From Squalus acanthias (taxonomy: Eukaryota): a DNA stretch of 64,000 nt. Where the stretch lies: the NCBI GenBank assembly GCA_030390025.1, contig CM059430.1, positions 74,710,001 through 74,774,000 of the forward strand, written 5' to 3'. How positions within the stretch are numbered: the first letter of the stretch is position 1; each line of letters opens with the position of its first letter. Under the pieces are notes generated by a model, which had not been told where the DNA came from, made no database searches, and was given only the letters and a program-made list of their open reading frames with translations. Below, piece after piece: positions 26,969 to 50,419 of the stretch. The position numbers were made by a program, and so were the translations under genes.

Positions 26969-29921
26969 TCATGTCCAAATTCCTGCCCGCTCCCCGCAAC
27001 CCTTAATGCCCTTTACTTCTAGGAAACTGTCTATTTCTGTTTTAAATTTATTTAATGATGTAGCTTCTACAGCTTTTTGTGGCAGCATATTCCATGGACC
27101 TACCACCCTCTGAGTGAAGTAGTTCCTCCTCATCTCAGTTTTGAAAGAGCAGCCCCTTATTCTAAGACTATGTCCCCTAGTTCTAGTCTCACCCGTCATC
27201 GGGAACATCCTCCCCGCATCCACCCGATCCAACCCCTTCACAACCTTATATGTTTCAATAAGATCGCCTCTCATTCTTCTGAACTCCAATGAGTAGAGTC
27301 CCAATCTACACAACCTCTCCTCATATGACCACCCCCTCATCCCCGGGATTAACCGAGTGAACTTTTTTTGCACTGCCTCTAGAGCTAGGATGGCTTTCCT
27401 TAAGTAAGGACACCAAAACTGTATGCAGTATTCCAGGTGCGGTCTCACCAATACCTTGTACAACTGAAGCAACACCTCCCTATTTTTATATTCTATCCCC
27501 CTAGCAATGAAAGCCAACATTCCATTTGCCTTCTTAATCACTTGCTGCACCTGCATACTAACCTTTTGAGTTTCGTGCACCAGGACCCCCAGATCCCTTT
27601 GCACTTCAGTACTCTCCAGTTTCTTGCCATTAAGATAATAAATTGCTCTAGGATTTTTCCTGCCAAAGTGCATCACCTCACACTTTCCAGTGTTGTATTC
27701 CATCTGCCAAATCTCTGCCCACTTACTTAGCCTGTCTATGTCCCCTTGCAGTTTTTTTATGTCCTCCTCACTCACTACTTTCCCTCCCATCTTAGTATCA
27801 TCTGCAAATTTTGATATGTTACACTTGGTCCCTTCCTCCAAATCGTTAATATAGATTGTAAAGAGTTGGGGACCCAGCACTGACCCCTGTGGAACACCAC
27901 TAGTTACTGATTGCCAGTCTGAGAATGAACCATTTATCCCAACTCTTTGCTTTTTGTTAGATAGCCAATCCTCTATCCATGCCAGAATATTACCCCCAAT
28001 CCCGTGATTTTTTACCTTAAGCAATAATCTTTTGTGTGGCACCTTGTCAAATGCCTTTTGGAAGTCTAAATACACTACGTCTACTGGTTCCCCTTTATCC
28101 ACTCTATATGTTACTTCCTCAAAGAACTCCAGCAAATTTGTCAAACATGACTTCCCCTTCGTAAAACCATGCTGACTTTGTCCTATTAAATTATGATTAT
28201 CCAAATGTCCAGTTACTGTTTCCTTAATAATGGACTCCAAATTTTTACCTACCACAGATGTTAGGCTAACCGGTCTATAGTTACCAGCCTTCTGTCTACT
28301 GCCCTTTTTAAATAAGGGTGTTACATTAGCAGTTTTCCAGTCTGCCGGGACCTTAGTGGAATCCAGGGAGTTTTGAAAAATTATTACCAATGCATCTACA
28401 ATCCCTACCGCCACTTCCTTCAAGACTCTAGGATGTAAGCCATCAGGTCCAGGTGATTTATCCGCCTTGAGTCCCATTATTTTACCGAGTACCACTTCCT
28501 TAGTGATTTTGATCGTGTTTAGCTCCTCTCCCCCTATAGCCCCCTGTTTGTCCAGTGTTGGGATATTCCTAGTGTCCTCTACTGTAAAGACTGATACAAA
28601 ATATTCATTCAGTGTTTTTGCCATCTCCATATTTCCCACCATTAATTTCCCGGTCTCATCCTCTAAGGGACCAACATTTACTTTAGCCACCCTTTTTCTT
28701 TTTATATAACTATAAAAACTCTTACTATATGTTTTTATATTTTTTGCTAATTTACATTCATAATCTATCTTCCCTTTCTTAATCAATCTTTTTGTTATTT
28801 TTTGCTGCCTTTTAAAGTTTTCCCAATCCTCTGTCCTCCCACTAGATTTCGCTACCTTATATGCCCTTGTTTTTAGTCGAATACTATCCTTAATTTCTTT
28901 ACTTAGCCACGGATGACTGTCCTTTCTTTTACACCCTTTTCTTTTCAGTGGAATATATATTTTTTGGAAGTTGTAAAATAACTCCTTGAATGTACACCAC
29001 TGATCATGTGTCGTCTTACCCTTTAATCTATTTTCCCAATCCACTCTACTCAATTCCGCTCGCATACCTTCATAGTCTCCTTTATTCAAGCTTAGCACGC
29101 TTGTTTGAGATCCAACCTTCTCACCCTCTAATTGAATATGGAATTCAACCATGTTATGATCACTCATTCCAAGGGGATCCTTTACTAGGACATTTTTAAT
29201 TAATCCTGTCTCGTTACATAGGACCAGATCTAAGGTTGCTTGCCCCCTGGTCGGTTCAGTTACATACTGCTCAAGAAACCCATCCCTAATACACTCAATG
29301 AACTCATCCTCAAGGCAGCCCTGCCCCATTTGATTTGTCCAATTAATATGATAGTTAAAATCCCCCATAATTATAGATGTTCCCTTATTACATGCCTCAA
29401 CTATTTCCTGATTGATACTCCGTCCAACAGAGTTGCAACTGTTCGGAGGCCTATAGACTACGCCCACTAATGTTTTTTTTCCCCTTATTATTCCTTATCT
29501 CCACCCAAACTGTTTCATTATCATGATTTTTTGACCCAATATCATTACTCTGTATTACAGTGATTCCTACCTTTATTAACATAGCCACCCCACCTCCCCT
29601 TCCTTCCTGCCTGTCCTTCCTGATCGTTAAATAACCTGGTATGTTTAATTCCCAGGCATTGTCACCCTGCAGCCATGTTTCTGTAATGGCCACAATAGCA
29701 TAACCATATGTAATTATTTGTGCCATTAACTCGTCTATTTTGTTACGAATGCTACGTGCATTCAGATAGAGAACTTTCAAATATGCTTTGTGGCACTTAG
29801 TTCCTGCTTTTTCACTTTTTACCACTTTACCTTTTACTCCACACACTCTGTCCCTTCCTGCCACTCTCTGATTTGTGATTTCCCTACTGCTACCTATGTC
29901 TATGACCCTCTCTGTTGTCAT
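26969..29921 (-). CDS. CR1 ORF2: APE endonuclease + reverse transcriptase (one +1 frameshift in A8 at 29473-29480)
   Basis: 156-aa ORF (YLNARSIRNK, AITETWL, GGGVA) joins an 832-aa ORF (YRPP, GDFN, SDH, LDFQKAFD, GVPQGSVLGP, FADD, HLEYC) if one A is removed, restoring KGKKTLVGVVYRPP. Confidence 0.95.
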
Positions 29922-29959
29922 TTTTATTTTTTGCTCTCTTGAAACCTCCCCCCCACTAA

Positions 29960-30916
29960 TTAGTTTAAAGCCCTCTCCACAGCCCTAGTTATTCGATTCG
30001 CCAGGACATTAGTCCCAGCACTGGCCAAGTGAAGTCCGTCCCAACGGAACAGCTCTCTCCTGCCCCAGTACTGGTGCCAGTGTCCCAAGAAGCAAAACCC
30101 ATTTTTCCCACACCAGTCTTTGAGCCACGCATTCAACTCCCTGATTTTATTTACCCTAGCCAAATTTGCTCGTGGCTCAGGTAGTAATCCAGAGATTATT
30201 ACCCTCGAGGTTCTGCTTTTTAATTTGGCCCCTAGCTGCTCAAACTCCCTCAGCAGAACCTCTTTCCTTGTTCTATCTATGTCATTGGTACCAACATGGA
30301 CCACGACAACTGGATCCTCCCCCTCCCACTCCAAGTTTCTCTCCAGCCCAGAGGAGATGTCCTTAACCCTGGCACCGGGCAGGCAACACAGCCTTCGGGA
30401 CTCTCGCTCTTGGCTGCAAAGAATCCTATCTATCCCCCTAATGATACTATCCCCTACCACTACAACATTTCTTTTTACTCCCCCCACTTGAATGGCCCCC
30501 TTTACCACGGTGCTGTGGCCAGGTTGCTCATCCTCCCTGCAGTCCCCGCTCCTATCCACACAGGGAGTAAGAGCCTCGAACCTGTTGGACAAGAGCAAGG
30601 GCTGCGGCTCCTCCAACACTACCTCCTGGATCCCTGTACCTGCCTCACTCGTAGTCACACCTTCCTGTCCCTGACCACGGGCTACTTCTGAAGTAGTTAC
30701 TCTAATTGGTGTGACTACCTCCTGAAACACGGAGTCCAGGTAACTCTCCCCCTCCCTGATGTGTCGCAGTGTTTGAAGCTCGGACTCCAGCTCATCAACA
30801 CGGAGCCGGAGTTCCTCGAGCAGCCAACACTTACTGCAAATGTGTTCACCGTGAACATCAATGGTGTCCACCAGCTCCCACATATTGCAGCAGTAACACA
30901 TCACCTGCTCTCCCAT
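29960..30916 (-). CDS. CR1 ORF1 protein: zinc finger/leucine zipper + SGNH esterase domain
   Basis: 318 aa open frame with CxxC...HxCxxC, coiled coil LEELRLRVDELESEL, and SGNH blocks GDS, PGA, GTND, DGLH. Confidence 0.95.
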   Translation of the reverse strand: MGEQVMCYCCNMWELVDTIDVHGEHICSKCWLLEELRLRVDELESELQTLRHIREGESYLDSVFQEVVTPIRVTTSEVARGQGQEGVTTSEAGTGIQEVVLEEPQPLLLSNRFEALTPCVDRSGDCREDEQPGHSTVVKGAIQVGGVKRNVVVVGDSIIRGIDRILCSQERESRRLCCLPGARVKDISSGLERNLEWEGEDPVVVVHVGTNDIDRTRKEVLLREFEQLGAKLKSRTSRVIISGLLPEPRANLARVNKIRELNAWLKDWCGKNGFCFLGHWHQYWGRRELFRWDGLHLASAGTNVLANRITRAVERALN

Positions 30917-31132
30917 TCTATGTAATTAATTAAAAATTTACTATTTTCCCTTCAGTTAATTTATGCCAGCAGTCTCCGCTACACCACAGATACCCGAGAA
31001 ACTATATACTATGGAATTGAAGTTTTGTATAAAAAAAAGAGAAATACTCACCAACCAATCACTTACCTGCTTTCTGGTGACGTCACACTTCGATTATTTT
31101 TTACCTCTCTCCTGCTCTCGGCTTGGTGAAAG

Positions 31133-32899: not shown

Positions 32900-34443
32900 C
32901 CACAAGTATGTAAAAAGAGAGAAGCAAAATCAAGCGTTCGTCCCTAACAAGCTGAGACAGGAGCAATTATATTGGAGAGCCAGAACATGGAAGAGACTTT
33001 AAAGAACTATTTTGTATCTGTCTTCACGTTAAAAGACAAAAAAAAGCGTACCAAAATAGTGAGGAACAAAGGGGCTAATGAGATCGAGAAACTTAAATAA
33101 TTAACATCAAAAGAGAAAAAGTACTCGAGAAACTGATGGGACTAAAAGCCGACAAACCCCTGGACCAGATGGCCTACAACCGAGGATTCTAAAAGAAGTG
33201 TCTGCAGAGATAGTGCATGCATTGATTGTGATTTTCCAAAAATCCCTAATTTCAGGTATCGTACCAGCAGATTGGAAGGCAGCAAATGTATCCCGCTATT
33301 CAAGAAAGGAGGCAGAGAGAAAACAGGAAAATACAGGCCAGATAGCCTGATATCAGCCGTCGGGAAAATGCTGGAATGTCTTATTAAGGAAGTGGTAACA
33401 GGGTAAATAGATAATCACAATATGAGTAAGTAGAGTCAACATGGATTTATGAAAGTTAAATCGTGTTTCACAAATTTGTTAGACGTTGTTCAGGATGTAA
33501 CTAGCAGGGTAGATAAAGGGGAACCAGCGGATGTAATATATTTGGCTTTCCAAAATGTGCTCAATTACGTGCCACATGAAAGATTGTTGAGCAAGATAAG
33601 GGCAATGGTGTTGAGGGTAATGCATTAGCATGGATAAAGAATTGTTTAACAGACAAAGAACAGAAAGTAGGGATGAGCAGGTCATTTTCAGATTGGCAGG
33701 CTGCAACTATTGGGGTGCCGCAAGGATCAGTGCTTGGGCCTCAGCTATTACAATCTATATTAATGCCTCAGATGAAGGCACCGAGTGCAATGATGCATGT
33801 TTGCTGACGATAAAAAGCTAGGTGGAATATGTAAGATCTGAGGAGGACGCAAAATGCCTGAAAATGGATATAGGTAGGTTAAGTAAGGTGGCAGATGGAG
33901 TAAAATGTAAGGAAATTCACTTTGGTAGGACGAATAGAAAAATATATTTTTTTTAAATGGTGAGAAACTATTAAATGTTGGTGTTCAGAGAGATTTAGGT
34001 ATCCTGGTACAAGGAAAACAAAGAGTTCGCATGCAGTTACAGCAAGAAATTACGAAGGCAAATGGCATGTTGGCATTCATTGCTAGAGGGTTGGAGTACA
34101 AGTGTAAGGAAGTCTTGCTACACTCGTACGGGGCTCTGGTGAGACCTCACCTGGAGTACTGTGCACAGTTTTGGTCTCCTTATTTAAGGAAGGATATACT
34201 TGCCTCAGAGGCGGTGCAACAAACGTTTTAGATTGATTCCCAAGATGAGAGGTATGTCCTATGAGGAGAGATGAAGTAGATTGGGCCTATAGTCTCAGGA
34301 GTTCAGAAGAATGAGAGGCGATCTCATTGAACCATGTGAGATTCTGATGGGGATTGAAAGGATGAATGCTGAGAGGTTGTTTTCCCTGGCTGGAGAGTCT
34401 AGAAATACAGCGCATTGCCTCAGGATAAGGGGCCGTCCTTTTA
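32900..34443 (+). mobile_element. CR1 copy I, ORF2 (3' end resumes 36018-36290)
   Basis: KANGMLAFIARGLEYK and [18 protein letters not shown]; breaks at gtcctttta and resumes at ttttaataatgagatgaggagg. Confidence 0.9.
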
Positions 34444-36017
34444 TACGATAGCAAAATACTGCAAATGCTGGAAATCCGAAATAACAACTGAAAACGCTGG
34501 GAAAACGCAGCAGGCGAGGCAGCATCCTTGGAGAGAGAAACAGAGTTAACGTTTCAGGTCGATGACCTTTCGTCAGAACTGGAAAGAGCTGAAATCAAAT
34601 AGATTTAAGGCAAGGATGAGGCTGGGAAAAGGGGGAGGGGATGAAAGAACAAAAGGGGAGATTAAGAGACATTAAGAGACATTAAGAGATATGCAGGGCA
34701 AGAGGTGGTGTTAATGTTACAGGTTAAGCCTGAAAGAAGTGTGAAATCCACTGGCAGAATGAGGGACAGCTGCCAGCTTCTAGGAAGGAAAAAAAAAAGT
34801 GTGGGGGGCAAATAAAAGGGTGGATGAAAAAATAAAATATAAATGTGATAGGGGCTGAGATTATGTTCTAAAATTGTTGAACTCGATATTGACTCCAGAG
34901 GGCTGTAGCGTGCCTAAACGAAAGATGAGGTGCTGTTCCTCGAGCTTACACTTTGCTTCCGTGGAACAGTGTAATAGGCCGAGGACGGTGAGGTCAGAGT
35001 GGGAGTGAAGAGATGAATTGAAGTGACAGGCAACCGGGAGCTTGGGGTCCCCCTTACGGATTGAACGGAGGTGTTCCGCAAAGCGGTCACCCAATCTGCG
35101 TTTGGTCTCCCCAATGTAGAGGAGACCACATCGTGAGCAGCGAATACAGTATACTAAATTGCAGGAAGTACAAGTAAATCGCTGTTTCACCTGGAAGGGG
35201 TGTTTGGGGCCTTGGTCAGTGGGAAGAGGTGAGGTATAAGGGCATCAGTTGCATCTCCTGTGCTTGCACGGGAAGGTGTCGGGCGAAGGGGATGAGTTGC
35301 TGGGGGTGGTAGAGGAGTGGACTAGGGTGTCACGGAGGGAGCGGTCCCTGCGGAATGCTGAAAGGGGAGGTGAGGGGAAGATACGTTTGGTGGTGGGATC
35401 ACGCTGGAGGTGGCGGAAATGGCGGAGGATGATCGGTTGAATGTGGAGGCTGGTGGGGTGAAAGGTGAGGACAAGGGGAACTCTACCGTGGTTCCGGGAG
35501 GGAGGGGCAGGGGTGAGGGCAGTAGTGCGGGAGATAGAACGGACACGGTCGAGGGCCGTGTCGGAAACGGTAGAAGGGAATCCTCGGTTGAGGAAAAAGG
35601 AAGACATGTCGGAAGCAGTGGTATGGAAGGTGGCATGATCAGAGCAGATGCGGCGGAGATGGAGAAACTGGGAAAATGGAATAGAGTCCTTACAGGAGGC
35701 GGGTGGGAGGAAGTGTAGTCCAGGCTGCTGTGGGAATCAGTGGGCTTGTAGTGAATGTTAGTCAATAACCTATCCACAGAGATGGAGACGGAGAAGTCGA
35801 GGAAGGGAAGGGAAGAGTCGGAGATGGACCATGTGAAGGTGAGGGAAGGGTGGAAACTGGAAGCATAGTGAATGAAATGTTCTAGTTCAGGGCGAGAGCA
35901 GGAGACGGCACCGATACAGTCATCATTGTACCGGAAAAAGAGGTGATGCAGGGGACCCGAGTAGGACTGGAACAAATAGTGTTCCACATAACCCACGAAA
36001 AGGCAGGCATAGCTAGG
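34444..36017 (-). mobile_element. Penelope-like element (probably Neptune-type), 5'-truncated
   Basis: RT remnants PSYACLFVG and FFRYNDD, thumb, Cys-rich linker, GIY-YIG endonuclease LVYCIRCSRCGLLYIGETKRRLGDRFAEH; 3' pseudo-LTR at about 34450-34620. Confidence 0.93.
34544..34580 (-). ncRNA. Minimal type-I hammerhead ribozyme motif
   Basis: Minus strand: agtt CTGACGA a aggtc atc gacct GAAA cgtt aact. Core boxes, 5-bp stem II, palindromic ACGT in place of stem III, and stem I agtt/aact. Confidence 0.8.
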
Positions 36018-36290
36018 TTTTAATAATGAGATGAGGAGGAATTTCTTCACTCAGATGGTTGTGAATCTTGGGAATTCACTGCCCCAAAATTCCTACGGAT
36101 GCACATTCGTTGTGTATATTCAGAGCTGTAATAGATAGATGTTTGGACTCCAGCGGATTCAAGGGATATGGTGTTAGGGCAGGAAAGTGGAGTTGAGCTC
36201 GATGATCATCTCTGCTCTTATTGAATGGCGGAGCAGGCTTGAGGGTCCGTATGGCCTACTCCTGCTTCTAATTCGTATGTTCTTATATTC
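36018..36290 (+). mobile_element. CR1 copy I, 3' end
   Basis: EMRRNFFTQ segment, 3' UTR and ttcgtatgttcttatattctta tail. Confidence 0.88.
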
Positions 36291-36950
36291 TTAACTTGCT
36301 CCCTAGTTCCTTCAGAACTGTCTGTAGGACTTTGACACTTACCTTCCTATGTAATTGGTTCTCACATGGAATTCGAATTTTGGTATCTCCATTTCCCCCC
36401 GAAAAAGGTTCTGCATCTGTACAGTGATGTAATTTCCTCTAGCATCAGGAAGGCAACACATCAGGCCTGACACTTCGCATGTCCAGCCCTCTGCCTATCG
36501 AGCCCGCTAGGGTCACTGCATGCCTACACATCGCTGTGCACCCTTTGCAGTCATTTGTACCACGTTGCCATGGATGTGCACCAGATTGTAATTCCCCACG
36601 ATGTCTTCAACCTTACCGGCCTTCAGTAAAAAAAAAACGGATTGAGCGTGCCACACTCCAGGCGGATTCGTGCACATCCAGCATCTTCCTACCCAGCCGG
36701 ATGGCCACCCATTTATTATTCACCTGATCTCTATGTGGCTGCGGGGTGACCACCTCCTGGAAAGTGAGATCCAGGAAATTCTCAACCTCCCGTATGCCCA
36801 GCAGTGACTCCAGTCTCACCTCTATTTCAGAAAACCTGAGTTGGTGCTCGAGCAACCGGAGGCACTACCTGCACACATGCCATCCCGAAGTTTCCACTTG
36901 GCACAGCAATTGCAGAAAACGGGGCTTCTCTGTCCCATCATTTTAATTAA
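36290..36950 (-). mobile_element. CR1 ORF1 remnant (probable 5' part of copy H)
   Basis: ORF 36613-36855 LESLLGIREVENFLDLTFQEVVTPQ matches LQTLRHIREGESYLDSVFQEVVTP of the intact ORF1. Confidence 0.75.
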
Positions 36951-37063
36951 AGTCTATCTGCAAAAGGTACATAACGTTACACATATGTTTTAGTTTAGCA
37001 CCCCGTTAAATATCAATTATTTCGTTAATATTGATATGTAATTAAACTATATTTACATAAATG

Positions 37064-38692
37064 AGAAGTCGCACAACACCAGGTTATTGTCCAACAGTTT
37101 TATTTGAAATCACAAGCTTTCGGAGCTTACGTGGCCCCTTCCTCAGGTGAAGTGAACAAATACAGAATCGACAAAGCATATATAGATAGAGAACAATGCA
37201 TGTGTAACTTTCAATGGCAGACGACTACATTTAATTATCCTGACTGTTTATCTGCCGAGGTGTCACAAAAGGCAATCAGGTCAGCCAGGAAGGTACCACA
37301 TCAAAGACATAGCAAGATACAACTGAGACAATGAGGTGGAGTTACAGGGGGTCTAATGTGTCAAAAACTGCAGTCGGTATGTAAAACGATAAACTTTAAC
37401 ATTTTTACTTTTTTACTGGGAATCACATCTGTGAGTAAGCCAACGACGACTCGAGTCTGGAGCATGTCATGTATCGTGACATAAACCCAAGATCCCGGTT
37501 GAGGCCGTCCTCATGAGTGCGGAACTTGGCTATCAGTTTCTGCTCGATGATCTTGCGTTTGTCGTGTGTTTCTAAGGCCGCCTTGGAGAACGCTTTCCCG
37601 CTGATCCGAGGCTGAATGTCCTTGACTGCTGAAGTGTTCCCCGACTGGGAGGGAACACTCCTGCCTGGTGATTGTTGTGCGGTGTCCGTTCATACGTTGT
37701 CTCAGTGTCTGCATGGTCTCGCCGATGTACCATGCCGTGATGCATTCTTTCCTGCAACGTATGAGGTAGACAACGTTGGCCGAGTCACATGAGTATGTAC
37801 CATGTACCTGGCGGGTAGTGTCCTCACGTGTGATGATGGTATCTGTGTTGATGATCTGGCATGTCTTGCAGAGGTTGCCGTGGCAGGGTTGTGTGGTGTC
37901 GTGGTCGCTGTTATCCTGGAAGCTGGGTAATTTGCTGCGAACGATGGTACTTCTGAGGTAAGGCGGCTGTTTGAAGGCAAGTAGTGGAGGCGTGGGGATG
38001 GACTTAGCGAGGTGTTCGTCGTCATCGATGACATGTTGAAGGCTGCGAAGAACATGGCATAGTTTCTCCGCTCCGGGGAAGTACTGGACGACGTAGTGTA
38101 CCCTGTTGGTTGTGTCCCGTGTTTGTCTTCTGAGGAGGTCTATACGATTTTTTGCTGTGGCCCATCGGAACTGTCGATCGATGAGTCGAGCGTCATATCC
38201 CGTTCTTACGAGGGCGTTTTTCAGCGTCCGTAGGTGTCCATCGCCTTCCTCCTCGTCTGAGCGGATCCTGTGTATTCGCAGGGCTTGTCCATAGGGGATG
38301 GCTTCTTTAACGTGGTTAGGGTGGAAGCTGGAGAACTGGAGCATCGTGAGGTTGTCCGTGGGCTTGCGGTAGAGTGAAGTGCTGAGGAGTCCGTCTTTGA
38401 TGGAGATTCGTTTGTCCAGGAATTAAACCGATTCTGAGGAGTAGTCCATGGTGAGTTTGATGGTGGGATGGAACTTGTTTATGTTATCATGTAGTCTTTT
38501 CAGTGATCCTTCGCCATGGGTCCAAAGGAAGAAAATGTCATCGATGTATCTGATGTACAGTTGGTTGCAGGTCCTGTGCAGCGAAGAAGTCTTGCTCGAA
38601 CTTGTGCATGAAGATGTTGGCGTATTGGGGTGCGAATTTGGTCCCCATGGCTGTTCCGTGTGTTTGGGTAAAAAAATGGTTGTAGAAGGTGA
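37064..38692 (-). mobile_element. Penelope-like element (second family), 5'-truncated
   Basis: RT motifs GTAMGTKFAPQYANIFM and YIRYIDDIF; 277-aa ORF with thumb, CxxxxCxxC linker and GIY-YIG NVVYLIRC...WYIGETMQTLRQRMNGH. Confidence 0.95.
37110..37150 (-). ncRNA. Minimal type-I hammerhead ribozyme motif
   Basis: Minus strand: tcac CTGAGGA a ggggc cacgtaa gctcc GAAA gctt gtga. Stem I tcac/gtga, stem II with one G-U pair, palindromic AGCT. Confidence 0.8.
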
Positions 38693-38739
38693 TATATTTA
38701 CTTTGAAAGCGCTGCTCTCCCCTATTACTCTTTTGCACC

Positions 38740-39910
38740 GGTGTTTATCAAGCAAGAGGACATTGCGAAAGCTACGGTAAACGAAGCCTTGTTCAGAATA
38801 CTGCATGAGATAAAAATAGATAACGCGGTGGGACTAGAAAGGCTGCCAGAACTTAAAGTAAAAAAGTCACCAGGTCCCGATGGGATACATCCTCGGTTGC
38901 TGAGGGAAGTAAATGTAGAAATTGCGGAGCTGCTGACCACAAGCTTCCAATCCTTCATAGATACGGGGTGGTGCCAGACGACTGGAGAATTGTGAATATT
39001 ATACACTTGTTCAAAAAAGAGCTGAAAATATACCTTGCAATTACAGGCCTGTCAGTTTAACAGCAGTGGTGGGGAAGAACTTAGAATCAATAATCCGAGA
39101 GAAAGTTACCAGCCACGTGGACAAGTCTGCGGTCTCTCAACAGTCAACTTCCTCCAATAACTGTCCAATTAACCCGAATAAAGCAGCGCTAGCACGAATT
39201 TGTTAAGGGAAAATCGCCTTTGAATAACATGATTGAGTTTATTGAAAAGGTAACAGAGAGGGTGGATGAGGGCTGTGTAGTTGATTTTGTGTATATGGTC
39301 TTGGCAAAGGCCTCTGATAAAGTACGACATAATAATCTTGTCAGCAAAATTGAAGGTTATGGGATAAAAGGGGCAGTAGCAGCATGAATACAAAATCGAC
39401 TAAGAGATTGAAGACGAATTGTTTTAGTGAATGACTGTTATTTCGGACTGGGGGGAGGTATATAGTGCTGTTCCCGAGGTTTTAGTACCAGCACCACTGC
39501 TGTTTGTGAAGTACATTAATGTCTTGGATTTGGGTTACAATGCACTCTTCCGAAATTTTCAGATGTCACAAAGTTGGGAAGAGTATTAAACAGTGACGTA
39601 GTTCGTAATAGACTTCAAGAGGATATAGGCAGTTTGGTGGAATGGGCGAACATATGGCAGATGTAATTCAACGCAGAAAAGTGTTAGCTGACATATTTTG
39701 GTAGGAAGAATGAGGAGAGACAATACATGCAAAATGTACTATTTTGAAGTGTGCAAGAACAGAGAGACCTGGGGGTGCTTGTGCACAATTTTTTTAGGTG
39801 GCAAGACAGGTTAACAAAGCAGTTAAAAACAATGTCAAATACTGGGTTTATAAATGGATGCATAGAGTACAAAAGCCAGGACGTTATGCTAAGCATATAT
39901 AAAAAACGAA
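38740..39910 (+). mobile_element. Decayed CR1 ORF2 fragment
   Basis: KKSPGPDGIHPRLLREV, QRDLGVLVH, IEYKSQDVML. Confidence 0.88.
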
Positions 39911-40179
39911 GTCGGCCTTATTATCACTTGCTTTCTCACTCACAAACCTCCGCTAATGGGTTACATATTTCCACTATTTACACCATATCCCTCTCCCCTG
40001 TGCTTGCTGTAACCTATTGTAGTATATTCATATTATGTTGCATTTTTATCCCCACAGTAAATACAATTTCTTACTCATCTGCTCATCTTCCCAAGCTACC
40101 CAGCTACATTTATATTTGGCATTTATTTCCGTTCTTTCCTTTCGAGTTAAATTTGCTCTCAACTGCAAAGTTCTACAGC

Positions 40180-40185
40180 TTTATT
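40180..40185 (-). terminator. Candidate polyadenylation signal AATAAA
   Basis: First minus-strand AATAAA I found below the TM-exon stop (about 370 nt); a second lies at about 40122-40127. Motif evidence only. Confidence 0.3.
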
Positions 40186-40550
40186 TATGTGCCGATTTTC
40201 AAACGATGTATTCAGCCTGCAAACGTTAATGCAGCTGTCACTGATTACTTTGGAAATCCGCTAATATTGATAGATGAATCAAACTCTTGTTTTCCGTCTC
40301 TGGTTTATGCAATTAACAAATCTAGTGTTTTGATTGATTAAGGAATTTATATTTTTAGAGAAATGAAGACCGATCTAACGGCCATCAGCGGATCCACCAA
40401 CGCAAGAGCAAAACAATCGTTTACACTCTGCAAGCTGCGGTGAATTAATTCACCCAGTAGCAGTCGGCATATCGCTACATAATATTTCACCAACGTAGAA
40501 TGAATACTTGGAAATTGAAATCGTGATCGTTTGAAACAATAAATAATGCC

Positions 40551-40669
40551 TTACCTGCAAAGGAGGCTAGCCTTAAAATGTTCGGCAACAAGGAAAGATA
40601 GCAACAGAATTATTAAGAAACAAAATATCAACCTGGAAATCAAAGCAGCGCGAAGTCTGTAATCGGAAC
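40551..40669 (-). CDS. Transmembrane exon with intramembrane Arg and short tail: GSDYRLRAALISRLIFCFLIILLLSFLVAEHFKASLLCR*
   Basis: Acceptor ttttgcatattacag| at 40669/40670 (phase 1), hydrophobic run of about 22 aa. The end CAG|GTAAGG is both a phase-2 donor (exon end 40555) and an in-frame AGG TAA stop. Confidence 0.85.
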
Positions 40670-41599
40670 CTGTAATATGCAAAATTATGGACTTTGAGTT
40701 ATAAGGAGTGTTCTTCCGAAACATTACTCAATAAATGACGCAAATAAGGATGTGGCACAACTTAATACTTCCTTCCTACTTTGGGTATTTAATGAGATGT
40801 GAACAACTTTGTACTATGGGGAAATAAACATTTTAGTTGCAGGCTTGGAGCCATTTTAAAACGCATTATGCTTTCCTTTAAATGCTCAAATACTGAGGCA
40901 GGAAACACACGAACTTTATTCTACCTTGCCTGTTGGTTGTTTATAAATAGTTGATCGAGTGGAAAACTAGTCACAGGAATTAATCTGAAATTGGTTAAAG
41001 AGTTCGTAATATGCCATCGATCGATATACTACGTGCAGTAACAGGTTTGTTTAGTTCCAAAAGCGATTTCTTCTTTAAAGTTACGGCGTCTTAGCGCCCT
41101 ACTCAATATCTGCGAATGCGCTTTCTCTTGCAAAAACCGTACCATAGGCATTTCTTTTCTTTTCTCCGTGTTTCAATAAAAACAAAGAGGAATGTTGTTG
41201 CCTAACTATTTAGCTGTGGTGCTAAACTGTAACATTCCGATTTGACCTTTCCAGCATCGCACGCATCTCGAAAACAAATAAAACGATCTTAGTTTATCGC
41301 TAAAAATAAATCTTCTAATATCAAAAAACAATTAATTTTGTGCGAAAATATCGTCCAGTAATGAATTAGATTTCATCAAATAGTATGTAATATTAAAAAA
41401 AATATCATTTCAGAAATGTTTCAAAATTTGTTCGAGATCATAAGAATAAACAATAACGTTTCAGACAATAACTTTAAATGTGTTCTTATAACACGACGTG
41501 ACTCTGGGGAAAGTGTGGCATTTATCCCGAGGGATGTGTTTTTTTCCGGCAATTTGGTGCAACACAACGCACTCGCCCACTACCTGTATTCTACCAGTT

Positions 41600-44500
41600 T
41601 TGGAAATGTCCGTGCATGTTTTGCTCTTTTACCAGTGCTTCCCTTTTCTTTTTGTAGCATGGAGACCATAACTGTGAAACGTAGGTTAAGCGTGGCCTGC
41701 TCAGGGTCCTATACATGTTTAAATAACTTCATTACTTTTGAATTCTATACTCTAAGAAACAAATCTGTGCTTTGTTAGCATTTTAATTGTTTTTTCTGAC
41801 ATGCCATGCTGCTTCTAATGATTTGTTCTCCTGTATCCCTAGATCCTTTCGCTCTTCTACCCCATTCAATTAATGATTTTCCAACGTGTAGGTTAGGTTC
41901 CTGTTTTTCCAACCAAAGTGCATCATCTCACAATTATCTTACATTTTTTATGGTCAAGTTCATTCGCCACTTAACTGCAAGTTTTCTAATACCTTCTTGT
42001 ATTAGGTTGCATTCTTCCTGTGTTAGCTATACCTCCAAGTTTGGTATAATCTGGCAATTTTGATATTCAGTTAGTTATTCCTCAATCACAATCATTAGCG
42101 TAAATTATCAATATCATTAGCCCAAGGACTGATCCTTATAGAACACGGCTTTCTACCTTTCTCTAATCTGAATTACTACCCTTTACCCCATCTCTCGGCG
42201 TTCTATTTTTCAGTCAATTTGCTATCCATTCAGCTATTTTTCCTCTGGCTCCACATTCCCTAACGTTTGTCATGAATCTGCTGTGTGGTACGTTATCAAA
42301 CTTGTTTTTGAAAATCCAATATGTGACGTCTACTGCATTAACATTGTCTGCTCGTTTTATTCCTTCTTCAAAGAATGCTATCAGGTTAATTACCTTGCCT
42401 TAGACTTTTGGAATCCATGGTGTCTATTTTGTAGTTTATTATCTGTCTCTAAATGCGCTCTAGGATTGATTTTGTATAGATTCCAGTTCTTTTCCTATCA
42501 CTGACGTTAAGCTCACTGGTTTTGCACAACGATCGGTGCTGTGACGACTGTTGCTCACCATTTCTAAAAACGATTTGGACTCGGGAAGCAGAATTTCCAT
42601 TTCAAAATTTGCACATGACCTCAAATTGGGTGTGTACTTAATACGCAAGAGGACTGCGACAAAATACAGGAAGACATTAATTAACTTGCATAATGAGCGT
42701 GTAATTGGCAAATGAACTTCAACATAGATAAGTGCGAGGTAATAGACTTTTGCAGGAAGAATAAATGGGCCACATACTTCTTTGCAAATAAGTGTCTAAA
42801 TAGGGTGAAGCAGCAGAGGGATCTGGGGGTACAGATAGACAGATGACTAAAAGTAGCGAAGCAGGTTAATAAAGCCATATAAAAAGCAATCAATGCACTG
42901 GGGGTCATTTATAGAGGGATAGAATTGAAAAGCAGGTCAGTTATTTTAAATGTGTACAGAACCACACTTGGAGCACTGTGAACAATTCAGCTCTCCATAT
43001 TATAAAGAGCATATTGAGGCACTGGAGAAGGCACAAAGATATTTACGGGAATGATATCGCAACTGAGAGGTTATACCTATCAGGAAAGATTGAACAGGCT
43101 TGGGCCCCTTTCTCTGGAAAAGAGAAGACTGAGGGCTGACCTGATGGAGGTCATCAAGATTATGACAGAGTTTTATAGGGTATACGTAGAGGCGCTATTT
43201 CTTCTTTCAGGCGAGACCAGAACTAGTTGCCATAAATATAAGATAGCCACTGATCAATTGCAAAAGCAATTCAGGAGAAAGTTCTTAACCCAGAGAGTGG
43301 TGAGAATGTGGTACTCGCTACCAGAGAGAATTGTTGAGACGAATACAATAGAAGCATTCAATTAATGCTCGGTAAGCATTTGAGGGAGATAGGATAAGAA
43401 GGATATGTTGATGGTGTTAGATGAAGAGGTGTGGGGGGAGGCTTTTCTGGAGCATAAATACTCGCCAGAACCTGTTAGGCCGAATGGCTTGTTTCTGCGC
43501 TGTAAATAATTTGCAATTTTTTTAAAGTAGTGCGTCTGCTATCTCCTCTCTAAATTCCTTGAGGATGCGTGGTTGCATAGCCTCCGTATCTGCGGTTTTA
43601 TCATCTTTCAGTTTTCCTAGTTATTCAATTATTTTCTCCCTTTCTGTCCCAACTTTATTAATATTCTTGTTAACTCATCCTCTAGTGAATTGTCTATTTC
43701 GTTATCTTCTTCAGTAACAACTGAGGCGAAGTAATTATTCAATAGTTCTGCCATTTCTCTGTCATTACCCGTGTGTTAATCTTGCTCAATCTTTAGTGGC
43801 CCTATCCCAACTTGAAATTTAAATTTGTTGTTTGTATGTCTGTAGAACATTTTGTTATTACTGTTTATATTCCTTTATAATTTGATTTGGTAATTTATCT
43901 TGGTGTTCTTGCTGTTGTATTAACTTCTCTCCTCCTTATAGGGTTTTGACCTCCCCACCCCTATTAAGTACCCAATACTTCTTATCTGTCGTTTTCTTTA
44001 AGATTCACTGTTCGGGGCCTTACGGCAAATTATTGCCTCCAGTTCATCCAACATGTTTCAAGTACTACATACATTGCTATGCTAACAGTGTAACTTATTA
44101 TTTATCTCTCCTTGTTTTGATTATTTATTTTCTGTTTAAAGTTGATGACTTCATCCGATCTCTGGCCATTCGTGTTATCTTTATTCCTTCCTTTAGTTTG
44201 TCCTTTAATATATTTCCCTTATTCTTTTATTGTTAGTTTTCTGTAATTTCAAGCAGTTCCTTCCTCCCTTGTTATGTGTGTAAAGTATTATTTACAGCCC
44301 ATTTATCCTTTCCGATCCGACGTTGACCTGCTCGGTTGAGCTGCAAACCAGTCCAACGGTACAACTCCTTCCTGTCCCAGTACTGGTGCCAGTAACCCAC
44401 TTGCAAACACAAATCTTTTAGCCACGTGTTGACTTTCCTAATCTATTCTTCCCCGTGCCAATTTGCACGTGGTTCGGCAATAATCCAGATATTATCACCC

Positions 44501-45600
44501 TTGATGTCTTGCTTTTCAATCTTTCCTATATCATTGGTTCCGACATAGATTACAACAACTGGATCCCACCCCTCACTTTCCAAATTTTTTCCAGCCGTTT
44601 TCAGATGTCCCTTATCCTTGATCCTAACTGCGAAGTATACTATCTACCACTAATTATTAAAACCCTGCAACTATAACCATTCTACTCTACTTCTCCTCAA
44701 CTTGGACAGCCTTCAGCTCCACATTGTGTTGGTCGACATTTTAGTTGTCCTTCCCACAGTCTCACTTACTATCCTCACATGTATCGTGTAAGTTATACCT
44801 GTTGGGCAGCAGCACTGTCTGCTGGGTCTCCTACATCACCTCGCCAACGTTCCCATTACCCGGCAGACAGACAGTCACACTCTCCCCTTACTGCACCTGT
44901 GCTAGTCGTTGTTGTGTGAATTTGCTCTGAAGTAAATTATCCAATTATTCATCCTCGACCTCCTCCTTATTTGTCTCGAGGCAGCGACCTTTCTTGGAGA
45001 TGTCGCAGTCTGGGACAGTGTCGATGTCCGCAAACACCCTCATACTACAATCCCGGTACACAGCCTGCACTGCCATATCATTATTAATTAATTCATTGAT
45101 TTATTTGTTGGTTATACGTAGTTTATTTCTTTAAGTTTTTGGTCAATTGAAGTCTAGATTTATTAAATAGGTGGAGTTCGCTTATGTTAAATAAAACAAT
45201 ATTTTTAACGTGATTAATTACGTAGTTATTCATCAGTTATTAGCGTCTTTAAGTGCAGTTAGAATGTAATCACTGAACCCCTTTGATTTCAACTTTCTTT
45301 CAATAATATTACATTCTTACTAAGTCAAGTTTAACACAAACCAGGAAAGATAATAAACACACAAAGTGATATCTAGATACTTTCCGATATACTTATTTTA
45401 ATTTCTTCGAGTTCTGCTGCTTTCTTTGTGTGTTGATTATGACATCGCGTTTTCTATTTCCAATGTTGCGATTATTTACTTATTTACTGTTGCCCCTTGG
45501 TTTAAAGCACTTCGCACCTCTTTCCCCCTCTGAAACGAATTCACCCTCTCGACAAATTCCCGTTGCTGCTCTGTTTAGCAAGCCACTCTCTTCAGCATAT
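41600..45600 (-). mobile_element. Heavily decayed CR1 in the C1-TM intron, interrupted by a plus-strand CR1
   Basis: RT remnants 41600-42510, ORF2/ORF1 remnants 43520-45080 (cccagtactggtgccag as in ORF1 of other copies), AT-rich 5' region beyond. Confidence 0.75.
42560..43505 (+). mobile_element. 5'-truncated CR1 3' fragment
   Basis: ORF 43051-43365 YQERLNRLG...LEKRRLRADL...FLTQRVVRMW and a 3' UTR. Confidence 0.88.
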
Positions 45601-45808
45601 ACCCCCAGCACTGTTCGTATATATTAGTTAAGTACAACAACTTCCCATCGGCAGCCAAACTGGACTATACGAGACCAGGGCATCTCGGACAGCAAATTAC
45701 TGAATTCCACGTTTAACTTCGCATGTACGGTCCCCGGAATTTGGTGGCCGATTTCCACGTAAATAACGGTGAGCGCTCTTAATAAAGACTTACTCCTTGG
45801 CATCTTAC

Positions 45809-46118
45809 CTGGGTTACAATTGGAGAACAAATAAACAGCTAATTTCGGTGTCTGATGGGTGGGGTGAGATACCAAACAATTGTGATGGGTCCCTTTCTGG
45901 TCTGGCTGTGTCTGTTGCTGAATACTTGACGCTTCATATAGTCTTGCTGAGTTCAGCTGCCTTGTGGTTGTTATCCCGGTTGCAACGTTGCTTTTATTTT
46001 TGTACCAGCTGATGGCGATCGTCTCCGGATAAAAGTCAACCGTTTCACAAACGAGGAGGATAATTGTTTAAATTTCCGCCAGGCGTTATGGAGACAATCG
46101 TCGGGTTTGCTGGCGGAG
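45809..46118 (-). pseudogene. Ig C1-set domain exon with +1 frameshift
   Basis: Acceptor tcccctctgtag|, donor CCAG|gtaaga. Length 310 nt = 3n+1. Reads APPANPTIVSITPGGNL / TIILLVCETVDFYPETIAISWYKN...LYEASS...CLVSHPT...SNCNP with CxxxxFYP, W and CxVxH C1 hallmarks. The uncorrected frame stops at TGA 46047-46045. Confidence 0.92.
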
Positions 46119-46269
46119 CTACAGAGGGGATCAGGGAAAATCATATATACGTTCAGCATTTTACATTTATAACATTTTTATATCCCAATTCCAAATAAAG
46201 TGAGATAATTCATAAGTTGCATTTAACTGAATTGAAAAAAAAATGTACTTGACGGCCACCCTATACTTT

Positions 46270-46670
46270 CCCAAATGCTCAAGAAACAGCGGCAATAATG
46301 GAGCGGTTCTTCACAGCTATCACAAAAGTCTCACATACAGTGAATAATTTTCAAATGCAATCATCTCTGCGATGTGGGTAAATGATGCTTCAACCAGCAA
46401 ATTCAAACAATGACAGTGAGATTAATGACCAGTTCATTGTTTAAAGTGATATTGATTAGCGGAGGAATGGTGGGCAGAACACTTGGGGAACTGCTTGTTT
46501 TCGTTCCAGCAATGCTGTGGGTATTTTAACTTCATAAAGAACAGCAGGCAGGACATGGTTGGATTGTGACCTGAAATACAGCAGGTCCAACAGAGCAGTA
46601 ATCCCTCTCTACTGAAGTAAACAGCCCAGATTAATTGTTTAAATCCTACATAATAGCTTGACTCCAGAGT
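46270..46670 (-). mobile_element. Old tRNA-derived SINE (Deu-domain / SacSINE1-like)
   Basis: Recognised by resemblance to shark DeuSINE core sequence (aatgaccag...gggcagaacacttggggaact...gctgtgggtattttaac); similar decayed copy at about 55110-55315. Not verified by alignment. Confidence 0.5.
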
Positions 46671-46679
46671 CTTTTACGA

Positions 46680-47000
46680 ACGTACGAATATGCGAGACAT
46701 GACGGATAGATAAAGACCTTCTGGCTCACACACCGCACCAGACGGCAGCCTGTTCCAGAGTTCCACTATTCTCTGGAAAAAAAAGAGCCACCTCCTTGCA
46801 TCTAACCCAGATCAAGCGTGATACAACTTAGATTTGTTAGCCCTGGTCCAACCTAACCTATTTAATTAAAACAAACTGTCAACTGGAACAAAATGTGTTC
46901 CCTTCAATATCTTAAAATCCTCAAGCAGATCACCTGTATGTTTACGCTTCTCTAAAGTTTAGCGTCCAAACTCTTTTAACCTTTCTTCATCACCTTCATA
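46680..47000 (-). mobile_element. Decayed CR1 3' fragment
   Basis: gttccagagttccactattctctggaaaaaaa and cagatcacc resemble the FFxxRVVxLWN and RGDL 3' segments. Confidence 0.55.
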
Positions 47001-48335
47001 GCTTTAGGGGAAGACCGGCGTAAACTCCAGAGAAACGGGTAAAAACGACTGTTTTTGCCGTTTCATCAGGGTATCCGCAGATATTTAGTGCTGAAGGTAT
47101 GACGGAGAACACTGCATAATTTCTCCCCACAATTATTCAGAGAAAAACAGCTCGGATCTCCGCCAAGATAACATCATTAGCTGGATATGTGATTCACGCA
47201 GAAATGTATTCACTGTATAATCTGAGGAATTAAATACCCTCTCAGAGGATACTCCAGCAACTTTTTTTCTGCAAATTATCTCCTTCCAACTCACTGTTCG
47301 TTACCAACAGCGGTATGTGCCAATAACAAATTCAATTTACAGCTCATGCCATGGCCACTGCTTTTCATTAAAAAATGTTAAAGAAAAGTAGTCGCTTTAA
47401 TCTATAATCTATAATTAATTTAGCTGATTTAATTAATAATCTGTAATATTCATTAAAATAATTAGGAATATGAACAGCTATCGGAATTTTGGAGCGGCTT
47501 CAGTGGGGATAGAAACTTCAAACATCAGTGAATACACATCAATCCTAATGATTTCTTGTGAAGCTCTCAGCGACATATTGAGGATCCACAAGGTGCAGTT
47601 CAATCGATCTTATAATAATAAAGTCTTTATGCAGCAATTGCTGAAAATCGTAGTTTGTATCAGGTCCGGGATATGTTTAAACGTATTTCTCATTAATCTT
47701 TGAGAGATTGCGAGTTGCGTTGCTTTATTCACGGGACTGAGATGTGCCGTTTACTAAGAATCCTTAAATTACACGCGTCGTTTGGGGAATTTTCTATTAA
47801 CTACTTACACTGGAGAACGGCTGGAACTCATTTAACGATAACAGAATTTTTTGGGACCTGTTTGACATTACTGCTTCCTATCAGTATTAGAATTGTATTA
47901 GATCTCTATACTCGATTATTAAACGATCAAACTTTCAGCCATTAGGATCGCCAAAATGTACCGAATATGACATTTCTAAGAAACACATCATTACAAACGT
48001 ATTGCCAATCAGAGCGGATTCAGATAATTTGAGTCGAAACGTTATTAACCCATTTTCAAATTATTTCTGAATCTGCCTAACTTCGTCAGAGCTTCAATAA
48101 CAGAATACATTTTTAAAAAATATAAATATTGCTCTTCCAATTTATGATTACATCGTGTACGTTGAAAGCATTTCATTTAGAATTGTATCGTATATATTGA
48201 GGATTAATATACAGGTGACGAAACGCAAACGATCCACGAGAACAGGCATATAAGGCACCAATCATTCTGCATTACTTATTATTTTTTTCAGTTAAATGAA
48301 TTATCTGTGAGAGAAATCCCTGCAATGCCACCTAC

Positions 48336-48653
48336 CGTGGACAACAATCGTTGATCCAGTTCCGTTTCTGATTGTGTTTCTCTGTTGTTTGACTCCGCAG
48401 TAATACACCCCAGCGTCCTGGAAAAGGACATCAACGATCTGCAAGAAGCCCCGTCCTTTCCTCAAGAAATGTTGTTTCCTCGAGTCTGAGCTGGGTTGCA
48501 GAAATATACTTTCGCCGAGATTCCACCAGATAACATTCACTTCTGAAGTATCTGGAAAAGGAGGGAACGAACAAGCGAAGGTAATGTTTGCACCGATCGT
48601 CACAATCTTGTGTTGGGGGCTTTGGGACACTTTGAACACGGCATCGCCAAAAA
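48336..48653 (-). CDS. Germline-joined VJ-type Ig V-set domain exon (106 codons)
   Basis: Acceptor tttttcttccacag|, donor CACG|gtaggt, phase 1-1, open frame. VSQSP, B-strand Cys (ITFAC), C-strand Trp, DAGVYYC, and J-like GTGSTIVV in the same exon. Confidence 0.95.
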
Positions 48654-48774
48654 CTGTGGAAGAAAAATAAAAACATACAGACATCAATTAAACATATCAA
48701 TCCTGCCGGGAAATTGGTGATAGGCAGAGATATATAGAAGGATAGGAATGGACACAAAGAAGGATAAAAAATAC

Positions 48775-48829
48775 TTGTGTAGATAATCCCCAGGATCGCG
48801 GTGCACTGATGCACAGCGCGCACAGACAT
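48775..48829 (-). CDS. Leader (signal peptide) exon MSVRAVHQCTAILGIIYT
   Basis: ATG at 48829, 55 nt (18 codons + 1), donor A|gtattt, 121-nt intron to the V exon, in frame giving ...ILGIIYTIFGDA-VFKVSQSP. Confidence 0.85.
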
Positions 48830-48859
48830 ATTGAACAAAGGAAATAACTATTTTCCGCC

Positions 48860-48980
48860 ATAAACAGGAAACTCTGATGCTTTTATATAGATATGTTTGC
48901 AACTAAACTGCTATAAACGATGAAGCAATGACGAGTGAAACCACACGTTGAAATCAGCCGTACAATCAAGGAAATGAAGA
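48860..48980 (-). promoter_or_regulatory. Putative promoter: TATA box with RUNX, ETS and half-CRE motifs
   Basis: TATATAAAAG at 48889-48880 (minus strand), 51 nt above the ATG; TGTGGTT at 48945-48939; AGGAA cores at about 48866 and 48969; TGACG at 48929-48933. Confidence 0.6.
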
Positions 48981-50419
48981 GATGCAACGTGTCGTTGTAA
49001 CTGTGACCTTTGTATGGTTTGAAACATCACAAGCGGCAGAATTTGGACGAAATAAAACAACGGCCACACTGGTCAAACCTATTTCCGGTATATCGGTTAA
49101 ATACGGTTTCTATATCAAACAGTTGATCAAAATAATTGTTTTGGAAATTTAAATGTGTTGGTTATGGACTGGAAACTCCAGCAGGCCTCCCACTGCATCT
49201 CAAAGACAGGAATAACATTATTCAGCGAACTGGACAATTTGTTACCGCAAAGTTGGCGATTGTGACCATAGAGAGGATTGAGAAAGCAGAGGAGTTGAAA
49301 TGGGAAAGTGGTTTCTGGATATAATCGCCTGTTCAATCTATATGTAGCAGGACAAGACAGAGAAAGCTTCGGGCGAGTCTGGACGTCCTGCTTTCCAACG
49401 CGTTCTGTTTCTATTTGATTTGCTATGTTGTTTAAGATTGCAAAGCAAATATACAAACACCCTTTTAATGCGATCTCATTGCTTTTAATATAAATTGTGC
49501 ATGGAGATTTGTGCATCCTGAAACAAAAAAAAACAGGTAATCGAGCAGCAAGTGACCAACAAAGTGAAACCAGCCAGGGTAATGCGGCGTAAGCTTCAGT
49601 GTGGCCAATGTTGCTTTTCCACTCATTTATTTCACCAAATTTTGTCATTCTTTTTATTTGCTTTTTCTGTTCAACTCTGGGAACTACTGGAAAATTGTTT
49701 TTACTCTGGGCTGGCTTGAGCTGGTAATAGATTAATGAAATGACTCAGTATGTTGTGTGATCTGCTGTGATCTAATTTTCTTAATGTTCCTGTGGCATCT
49801 TGGACCGTTGCCAAAATGAAGAGATAAAACTTTCAGCTTGGTTGATAATCTTCAGCGTAGCAGCGAGAGAATAGTATAGACCAGGGTCAAAACAATACAC
49901 TGCGTAGAGCGAGTGGTGAACCAGTCTCCGGCGGAGTTCAGATTTGGGTTCAGTTGGTTCAAAATTATATCTTAAAGTGATAAACCATGAGTTTATGTTT
50001 CATATTATTGATGTTTTGACAAACTGCTCAGTTTATTATGCGCGACCGCTGAAACTTGTCATGTCTGATCTCTGTGCAGTGGGGAGGGCTTGTATATTTC
50101 ATGCTTCCCAGATGATCACATATGCAGCATGGATCCACAACAGCTTGCATTCGAGTTGAACATATCTGACCTTGAGGAAAAGCTTGGACCTGCAATTGCA
50201 TGTTGTAAGGTATGGTTTTCTGTAGCGCACATACCAGGATGCTGTCACTCCAAAGACACAGCGAGTCAGTGAAAGGGAAATAGTGGCCTTTCCTTTCAAT
50301 TAGAAAGAGAAGAGACGAGGCAGTATCGGCAGTGCCGGAGACTATTTAATTGACAGACAGGCATTAACAGGCTAGAGTCAGCTGTTGCCCAGTCGGGACC
50401 AGATGAAGTGCAGATTCGC

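Follow-up and report, generated by a model that had tools for sequence, protein, structure and literature searches.

The gene and its frameshifted C1 exon

The window, that is, the whole stretch of 64,000 nt that was analysed (G000:C6:74.71-74.77 Mb), carries on its minus strand, on which all exonic features given below lie, a putative V-C1 receptor gene that is referred to here as the hybrid gene. It comprises a leader exon (48775-48829; 55 nt, phase 1) with a weak donor that is common to its paralogue P1, a single-exon V domain with a J-like end (48336-48653; 318 nt), a C1-set exon (45809-46118; 310 nt) and an Arg-bearing transmembrane (TM) exon (40550-40669), which runs for 116 nt (40554-40669) to a GTAAG donor-like site and has an in-frame TAA at 40550-40552. 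Pfam V-set and C1-set matches are both above cut-off. The initial annotation had described the leader, V and TM exons as open, and none of them has a stop or a frameshift; in an alignment that includes it, the V domain retains the family-invariant C27, W42-W43, C85, G97 and G99.

The length of the C1 exon and its canonical splice sites (AG/GT ends at 45809-46118) had been read correctly, while the one extra base placed at about 46066-46074 is in fact a 2-nt deletion. P1 (C6:74.67 Mb) and P2 (72.75 Mb), the nearest paralogues of the hybrid gene, each have a C1 exon of 312 nt, and a +1 insertion at 46066-46074 was rejected, as TT is absent between 46055 and 46056 relative to both, in the exon comparison as in the contigs described below; the indel sits approximately 10-20 nt from the position first given, and the exon length that would point to an assembly error is 312 nt, not 309 nt. 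The deletion is disabling, as it leads to a premature TGA (46045-46047) that ends at nt 447, which leaves 236 nt between it and the C1/TM junction at nt 683. On paper, the V-to-C1 transcript encodes a truncated product of 148 aa without a TM segment, as had been foreseen, and is a predicted target of nonsense-mediated decay (NMD), by which transcripts with a stop well upstream of an exon junction are degraded. P1, in which the exon is intact, has exactly the same C1 acceptor (45 nt) and donor (12 nt), hence the exon would be retained in the transcript of the hybrid gene, which would then be truncated by the premature stop. A cryptic acceptor that restores the frame was rejected, with none of four AG sites (-60 to +120) giving an exon length divisible by 3. 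The exon was also said to carry atypical residues, and this is confirmed by comparison with 28 other C1 domains of the family, in which the tyrosine of Y79H and the leucine of L88H are each kept in 27, the glycine of G59R in all 28, and L, F or M at the position of L67Q likewise in 28/28. Skipping of C1 would yield, again on paper and as proposed earlier, an in-frame L-V-TM(Arg) form of 163 aa, since V and TM are phase-compatible; this length assumes that the TM exon is read through to the TAA, because no conserved exon 3' of TM was seen in the comparison with P2. A single V domain followed by a TM segment with Arg is the layout of NKp30.

A DNA contig of 342 nt covers 45797-46138 with neither a difference nor a gap relative to the window and was found in runs X1 and X3, which represent sample S1 and possibly the source of the assembly, as well as in X5, which represents sample S2 of another study. 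As the identical contig occurs in two samples of two studies, the deletion is not an assembly error, one of the options left by the initial annotation. A second contig in X1 and X5 carries two extra bases (listed in the read tables as AA put in behind 46055) and is most simply taken as P1, because a paralogue of 93% identity must map there.

Chimeric structure and tandem duplication

The alignments show the gene to be a chimera, which the initial annotation had missed. Window positions 41578-50385 align to P1 at 92.6-93.7%, whereupon the alignment ends, and the whole of 41578-64000 is a copy of the 5' part of the P1 gene and its upstream DNA (91-94% to G000:C6:74669357 onward) that extends past the window. 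On the other side, 34039-41582 is an insertion-broken copy of the TM exon and downstream DNA of the upstream neighbour A at C6:74.794 Mb (92-93% to G000:C6:74791335-74795197), with the TM region of the hybrid matching A at 92-94% and positions 40263-41582 at 92-93%. At the amino-acid level, the V exon is 94% identical to that of P1 and the TM exon 89% identical to that of A. Beyond the aligned part, P1 has a TM exon whose hydrophobic stretch is free of charged residues, and its tail bears the motifs LTYAAL and TEYAAI, resembling the tails of proteins from Heterodontus and Heptranchias (discussed below). The terms "inhibitory" for P1 and "activating" for the TM of A are used here as labels predicted from such motifs.

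Self-comparison of 193 kb revealed a tandem duplication of 74669357-74751582 versus 74751578-74795197, in copies of 82 kb and 44 kb that are insertion-broken and 91-94% alike. The gene order is A, hybrid, P1, so that the hybrid lies between its two parents, as a tandem duplication of this kind yields. P1-like sequence ends and A-like sequence begins in the C1-TM intron at 41578-41582, where only 2-3 bases are shared, and the junction therefore looks non-homologous; the extended homology expected of homologous unequal crossover is absent at this site, although a later deletion could have erased it. In X1 and X3, both from sample S1, the junction is spanned by a contig (41420-41730) that agrees with the window at every base. 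Gene conversion of V from P1 was rejected, as the synonymous divergence of V (5/71 sites) is at the level of the introns.

The donor of the TM exon, neighbour A (G000:C6:74794001-74797620), has an open V, a TAA in C1 and a leader whose phase (0) does not fit that of V (1), and is likely dead. In the leader of P2 (G000:C6:72747260-72747315), GC stands at the usual donor position, and a GT donor in phase 1 lies 9 nt beyond it. Roughly 30 kb of the window (4515-34039), present in one duplication copy only, are rich in retroelement fragments. Open LINE frames of 841 aa and 321 aa at 26969-30925, presumably CR1-like, are 88% alike to an insertion in the V-C1 intron of P1. Reverse-transcriptase and GIY-YIG-like frames at 34443-36050 and 37511-38833 belong to an element that we take to be Penelope-like, a relative of which lies at C6:74691923 with a 712-nt duplicate at 99.9%.

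Sequence change, transcription and the surrounding cluster

Changes on the two branches were polarised with P2 as the outgroup, and a neutral rate of 3.4% per branch was taken from flanking DNA. On the hybrid branch, nonsynonymous changes number 5 in V and 13 in C1 and synonymous ones 3 and 4; on the P1 branch the corresponding figures are 1 and 3, and 2 and 2. The 18 amino-acid changes of the hybrid in V and C1 together are close to the neutral expectation of 16.2, while P1 has 4 (p 0.0003). The lineage-specific excess of C1 over V (13 vs 5) has a p of 0.059. Contigs of organism B (X6) do not have derived C1 sites common to the hybrid and P1, which makes organism B a closer outgroup than P2, and at V codon 73 it has the letter of the hybrid, lowering the count for V to 4 (13 vs 4, p 0.028). 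V codon 44 is ancestral in run X11 and differs between samples; if it is dropped as well, 3 changes are left (13 vs 3, p 0.011). The decay of C1 that the initial annotation had suggested is borne out, with more amino-acid change than in V (13 vs 4-5; p 0.03-0.06). However, the 4-5 changes in V are not below the 5.4-8.3 expected under neutrality (P 0.08-0.55), and the 13 in C1 exceed the 5.2-8.0 expected; a surplus in C1 contributes to the asymmetry no less than a shortfall in V. No difference in N/S ratio between the V and C1 exons is seen (Fisher p 0.63). Among 28 other family members, 3 of the 5 V changes and 10 of the 12 scorable C1 changes are absent. The TM exon differs from that of gene A at 6/116 nt, mostly nonsynonymously, in a comparison that cannot be apportioned to a branch and in which gene A is itself broken. 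C1 has 17 changes on the hybrid branch, above the neutral expectation; with reference to the coding strand many of them are to A, and codons 78-80 hold three.

In X11, which is an RNA run by guess and has a depth of 3, one contig of 240 nt lies inside V and has 2 differences from the hybrid gene, which over this length differs from P1 at 8 places. The hybrid gene may hence be transcribed, while the contig is silent on splicing; X11 covers neither C1, TM nor the introns unique to the gene, and none of the RNA contigs spans an exon junction, V-to-TM included, the cover being too thin for this (X11 at depth 3, inside V alone). A protein database search with V alone for near-length matches found no V-TM protein, and a TM segment is present in 0/5 short database homologues, all of which are V-only fragments.

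With 150 candidates scored per exon, V gave 120 matches and C1 gave 129, almost all of them at C6:57-77 Mb, where at least 118 V-C1 gene pairs, comprising ITIM-tail as well as Arg-TM forms, make up a cluster of approximately 20 Mb. Members of the two forms adjoin, with 38 tail-exon matches at E<=1 and at least 13 Arg-TM exons among the matches listed. A census that took in 1.42 Mb of C6 surrounding the V and C1 matches scored core reading frames alone, not leaders, splice sites or TM exons; it set aside three second C1 exons, one C1 without V, extra V fragments, matches on other contigs, one stopped V without C1 in 20 kb and one stopped V whose C1 lay outside the set. Both cores are open in 77 of the 118 pairs and V or C1 is broken in 41, namely C1 alone in 12, V alone in 20 and both in 9. 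An open V with a broken C1 is what random decay gives (12 vs 20, p 0.22); when nine domains were checked by hand, two V proved over-called as broken and two under-called, with which the comparison becomes 12 vs 18-22 (p 0.12-0.36). Recurrent loss of C1 in the family was rejected, as the pattern is not enriched (12 vs 20 of 118). Four V exons were at first without a C1 partner, three of which turned out to have a frameshifted C1, while the fourth V has a stop. Three of the genes surveyed have a second C1 exon (G000:C6:61.81, 68.15 and 75.47 Mb), which is open at 61.81 Mb and broken in the other two. SIRP alpha and beta are paired receptors with a V-C1-C1 outer part, in contrast to the single C1 of the hybrid. 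Open V exons without the second canonical cysteine occur at G000:C6:74351949 and 74490068, and repeated inverted C1 fragments lie 3' of several genes at G000:C6:72.79-72.96 Mb. No paper on this cluster was found in the literature searched, which is weak evidence, as relevant work likely lies outside the search.

Interpretation and comparison with known receptors

These observations are best explained by a dead inhibitory-to-activating hybrid that is now probably a pseudogene. The tandem duplication would have joined the leader, V and C1 of an ITIM-tail receptor gene (P1) to the Arg-bearing TM exon of neighbour A. Charged-TM paired receptors signal through an ITAM adaptor, and at birth the product may thus have been an activating counterpart of P1, identical to it in domain make-up outside the membrane and signalling by way of an adaptor. 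The hybrid would then have lost constraint, and its C1-including transcript, with the premature stop, would probably be degraded by NMD. Against this reading stand the excess of changes in C1 over V (p 0.011-0.059), the leader, V and TM exons without stop or frameshift, and the V contig in X11, according to which the gene may be transcribed. The hybrid is likely dead like many other members of this cluster, and would be an ordinary product of birth and death among paired receptors. It nevertheless documents at single-base resolution one way in which sharks can derive an activating twin from an inhibitory receptor, by a route known from FCGR2C, while the larger item is the family itself.

The initial annotation had proposed a possible domain loss in progress towards the layout of NKp30. 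Combined with the chimeric origin, this would mean that the hybrid, having become an activating twin by the swap of its TM exon, shed C1 by frameshift and exon skipping and survives as a living one-domain L-V-TM(Arg) receptor. The phase-compatible V and TM exons with their 163-aa product, the fewer changes in V than in C1, the invariant residues kept in V and the presence of the V exon in the RNA-labelled run X11 all speak for such a receptor, and if true, C1 skipping would lead directly from VJ-C1 to the NKp30-like layout and make the receptor a recent case of antigen-receptor-like VJ-C1 genes becoming single-V NK receptors. This is unlikely, however, with V changing at the neutral level, an asymmetry that owes as much to C1, three V changes unseen in 28 family V domains and C1 splice sites that equal those of an intact paralogue. 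Nor is the pattern in excess among the 118 genes, the V exons that first seemed to be without C1 had a frameshifted C1 in three cases and a stopped V in the fourth, neighbour A with the same combination of open V and broken C1 also has an out-of-phase leader, and none of the five short database homologues has a TM segment.

A null allele of a polymorphic gene, with an open allele in other individuals as in FCGR2C-ORF, has a precedent in FCGR2C (PMC6786274), and only two DNA samples are at hand, with V codon 44 differing in X11. We regard it as very improbable, as the unbroken 342-nt contig matches the window exactly in S1 and in S2, the contig carrying two additional bases is most plausibly P1, and the 13 amino-acid changes in C1, several at conserved core sites, indicate long decay. 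Even less probable is the use of the 148-aa product as a secreted V domain that acts as a decoy for the ligand of P1; leader and V are open and the product is without a TM segment, yet the stop lies far enough upstream of the next junction for NMD and V is not measurably constrained. For an assembly error or a false haplotype duplication no support was found, and we consider either almost certainly wrong, since the deletion is present in contigs of two samples, the junction is spanned in S1 and the duplicated copies are separated by 6-9% divergence as well as numerous insertions.

The closest parallel is FCGR2C of the human FCGR2/3 locus, in which the 5' exons of an inhibitory gene are placed on the 3' exons of an activating gene as a result of segmental duplication with 82-kb repeats, and which is non-functional in most carriers (PMC6786274). 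The shark gene likewise combines an inhibitory-type 5' part with an activating-type 3' part and lies between its parents by way of a segmental duplication. It differs in that the swap in the C1-TM intron brings a charged TM rather than a cytoplasmic signalling tail, in a junction without extended homology between copies that are 92-93% alike (>98% in FCGR2C), in the absence of an open allele from the two DNA samples and in its unrelated Ig domains. The best reading of this comparison is that the hybrid behaves as a failed FCGR2C-type hybrid inside a paired-receptor family.

In the paired opposing receptors KLRC, PIR and KLRI, alike outer domains are ascribed to recombination or conversion (PMC3210942); the shark family similarly has ITIM-tail members beside charged-TM members, but V gene conversion did not occur here (synonymous 5/71 sites vs P1). 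Non-rearranging VJ-C1 genes are known in sharks, and NKp30/NCR3 has a non-rearranging VJ exon (PMC10751288, PMC12227049). The VJ exon of the hybrid is non-rearranging as well, and the hypothetical skipped form would share the V-TM(Arg) layout. Membership in the NKp30 lineage is not supported, as almost every member of the shark family has a C1 exon and the V profile does not find NKp30 within the best 60 of its 1240 PDB matches; the PDB searches gave generic Ig matches that name no family.

All four longer database homologues are shark V-C1 proteins with an intact C1, unlike the hybrid; by these homologues, the DNA most likely comes from a shark. Those of Heterodontus (XP_067906095), Heptranchias (XP_067853502) and Pristiophorus have the same V and C1 domains, with V 67-73% identical, and a two-tyrosine tail like that of P1, while that of Scyliorhinus (XP_072373771) is 50% identical and has an Arg TM and no tail. 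The annotation names of the four, such as "tapasin-related protein-like" (Heterodontus), "CD276 antigen homolog" (Heptranchias) and "NCR3 ligand 1-like" (Pristiophorus), are source labels and mutually inconsistent.
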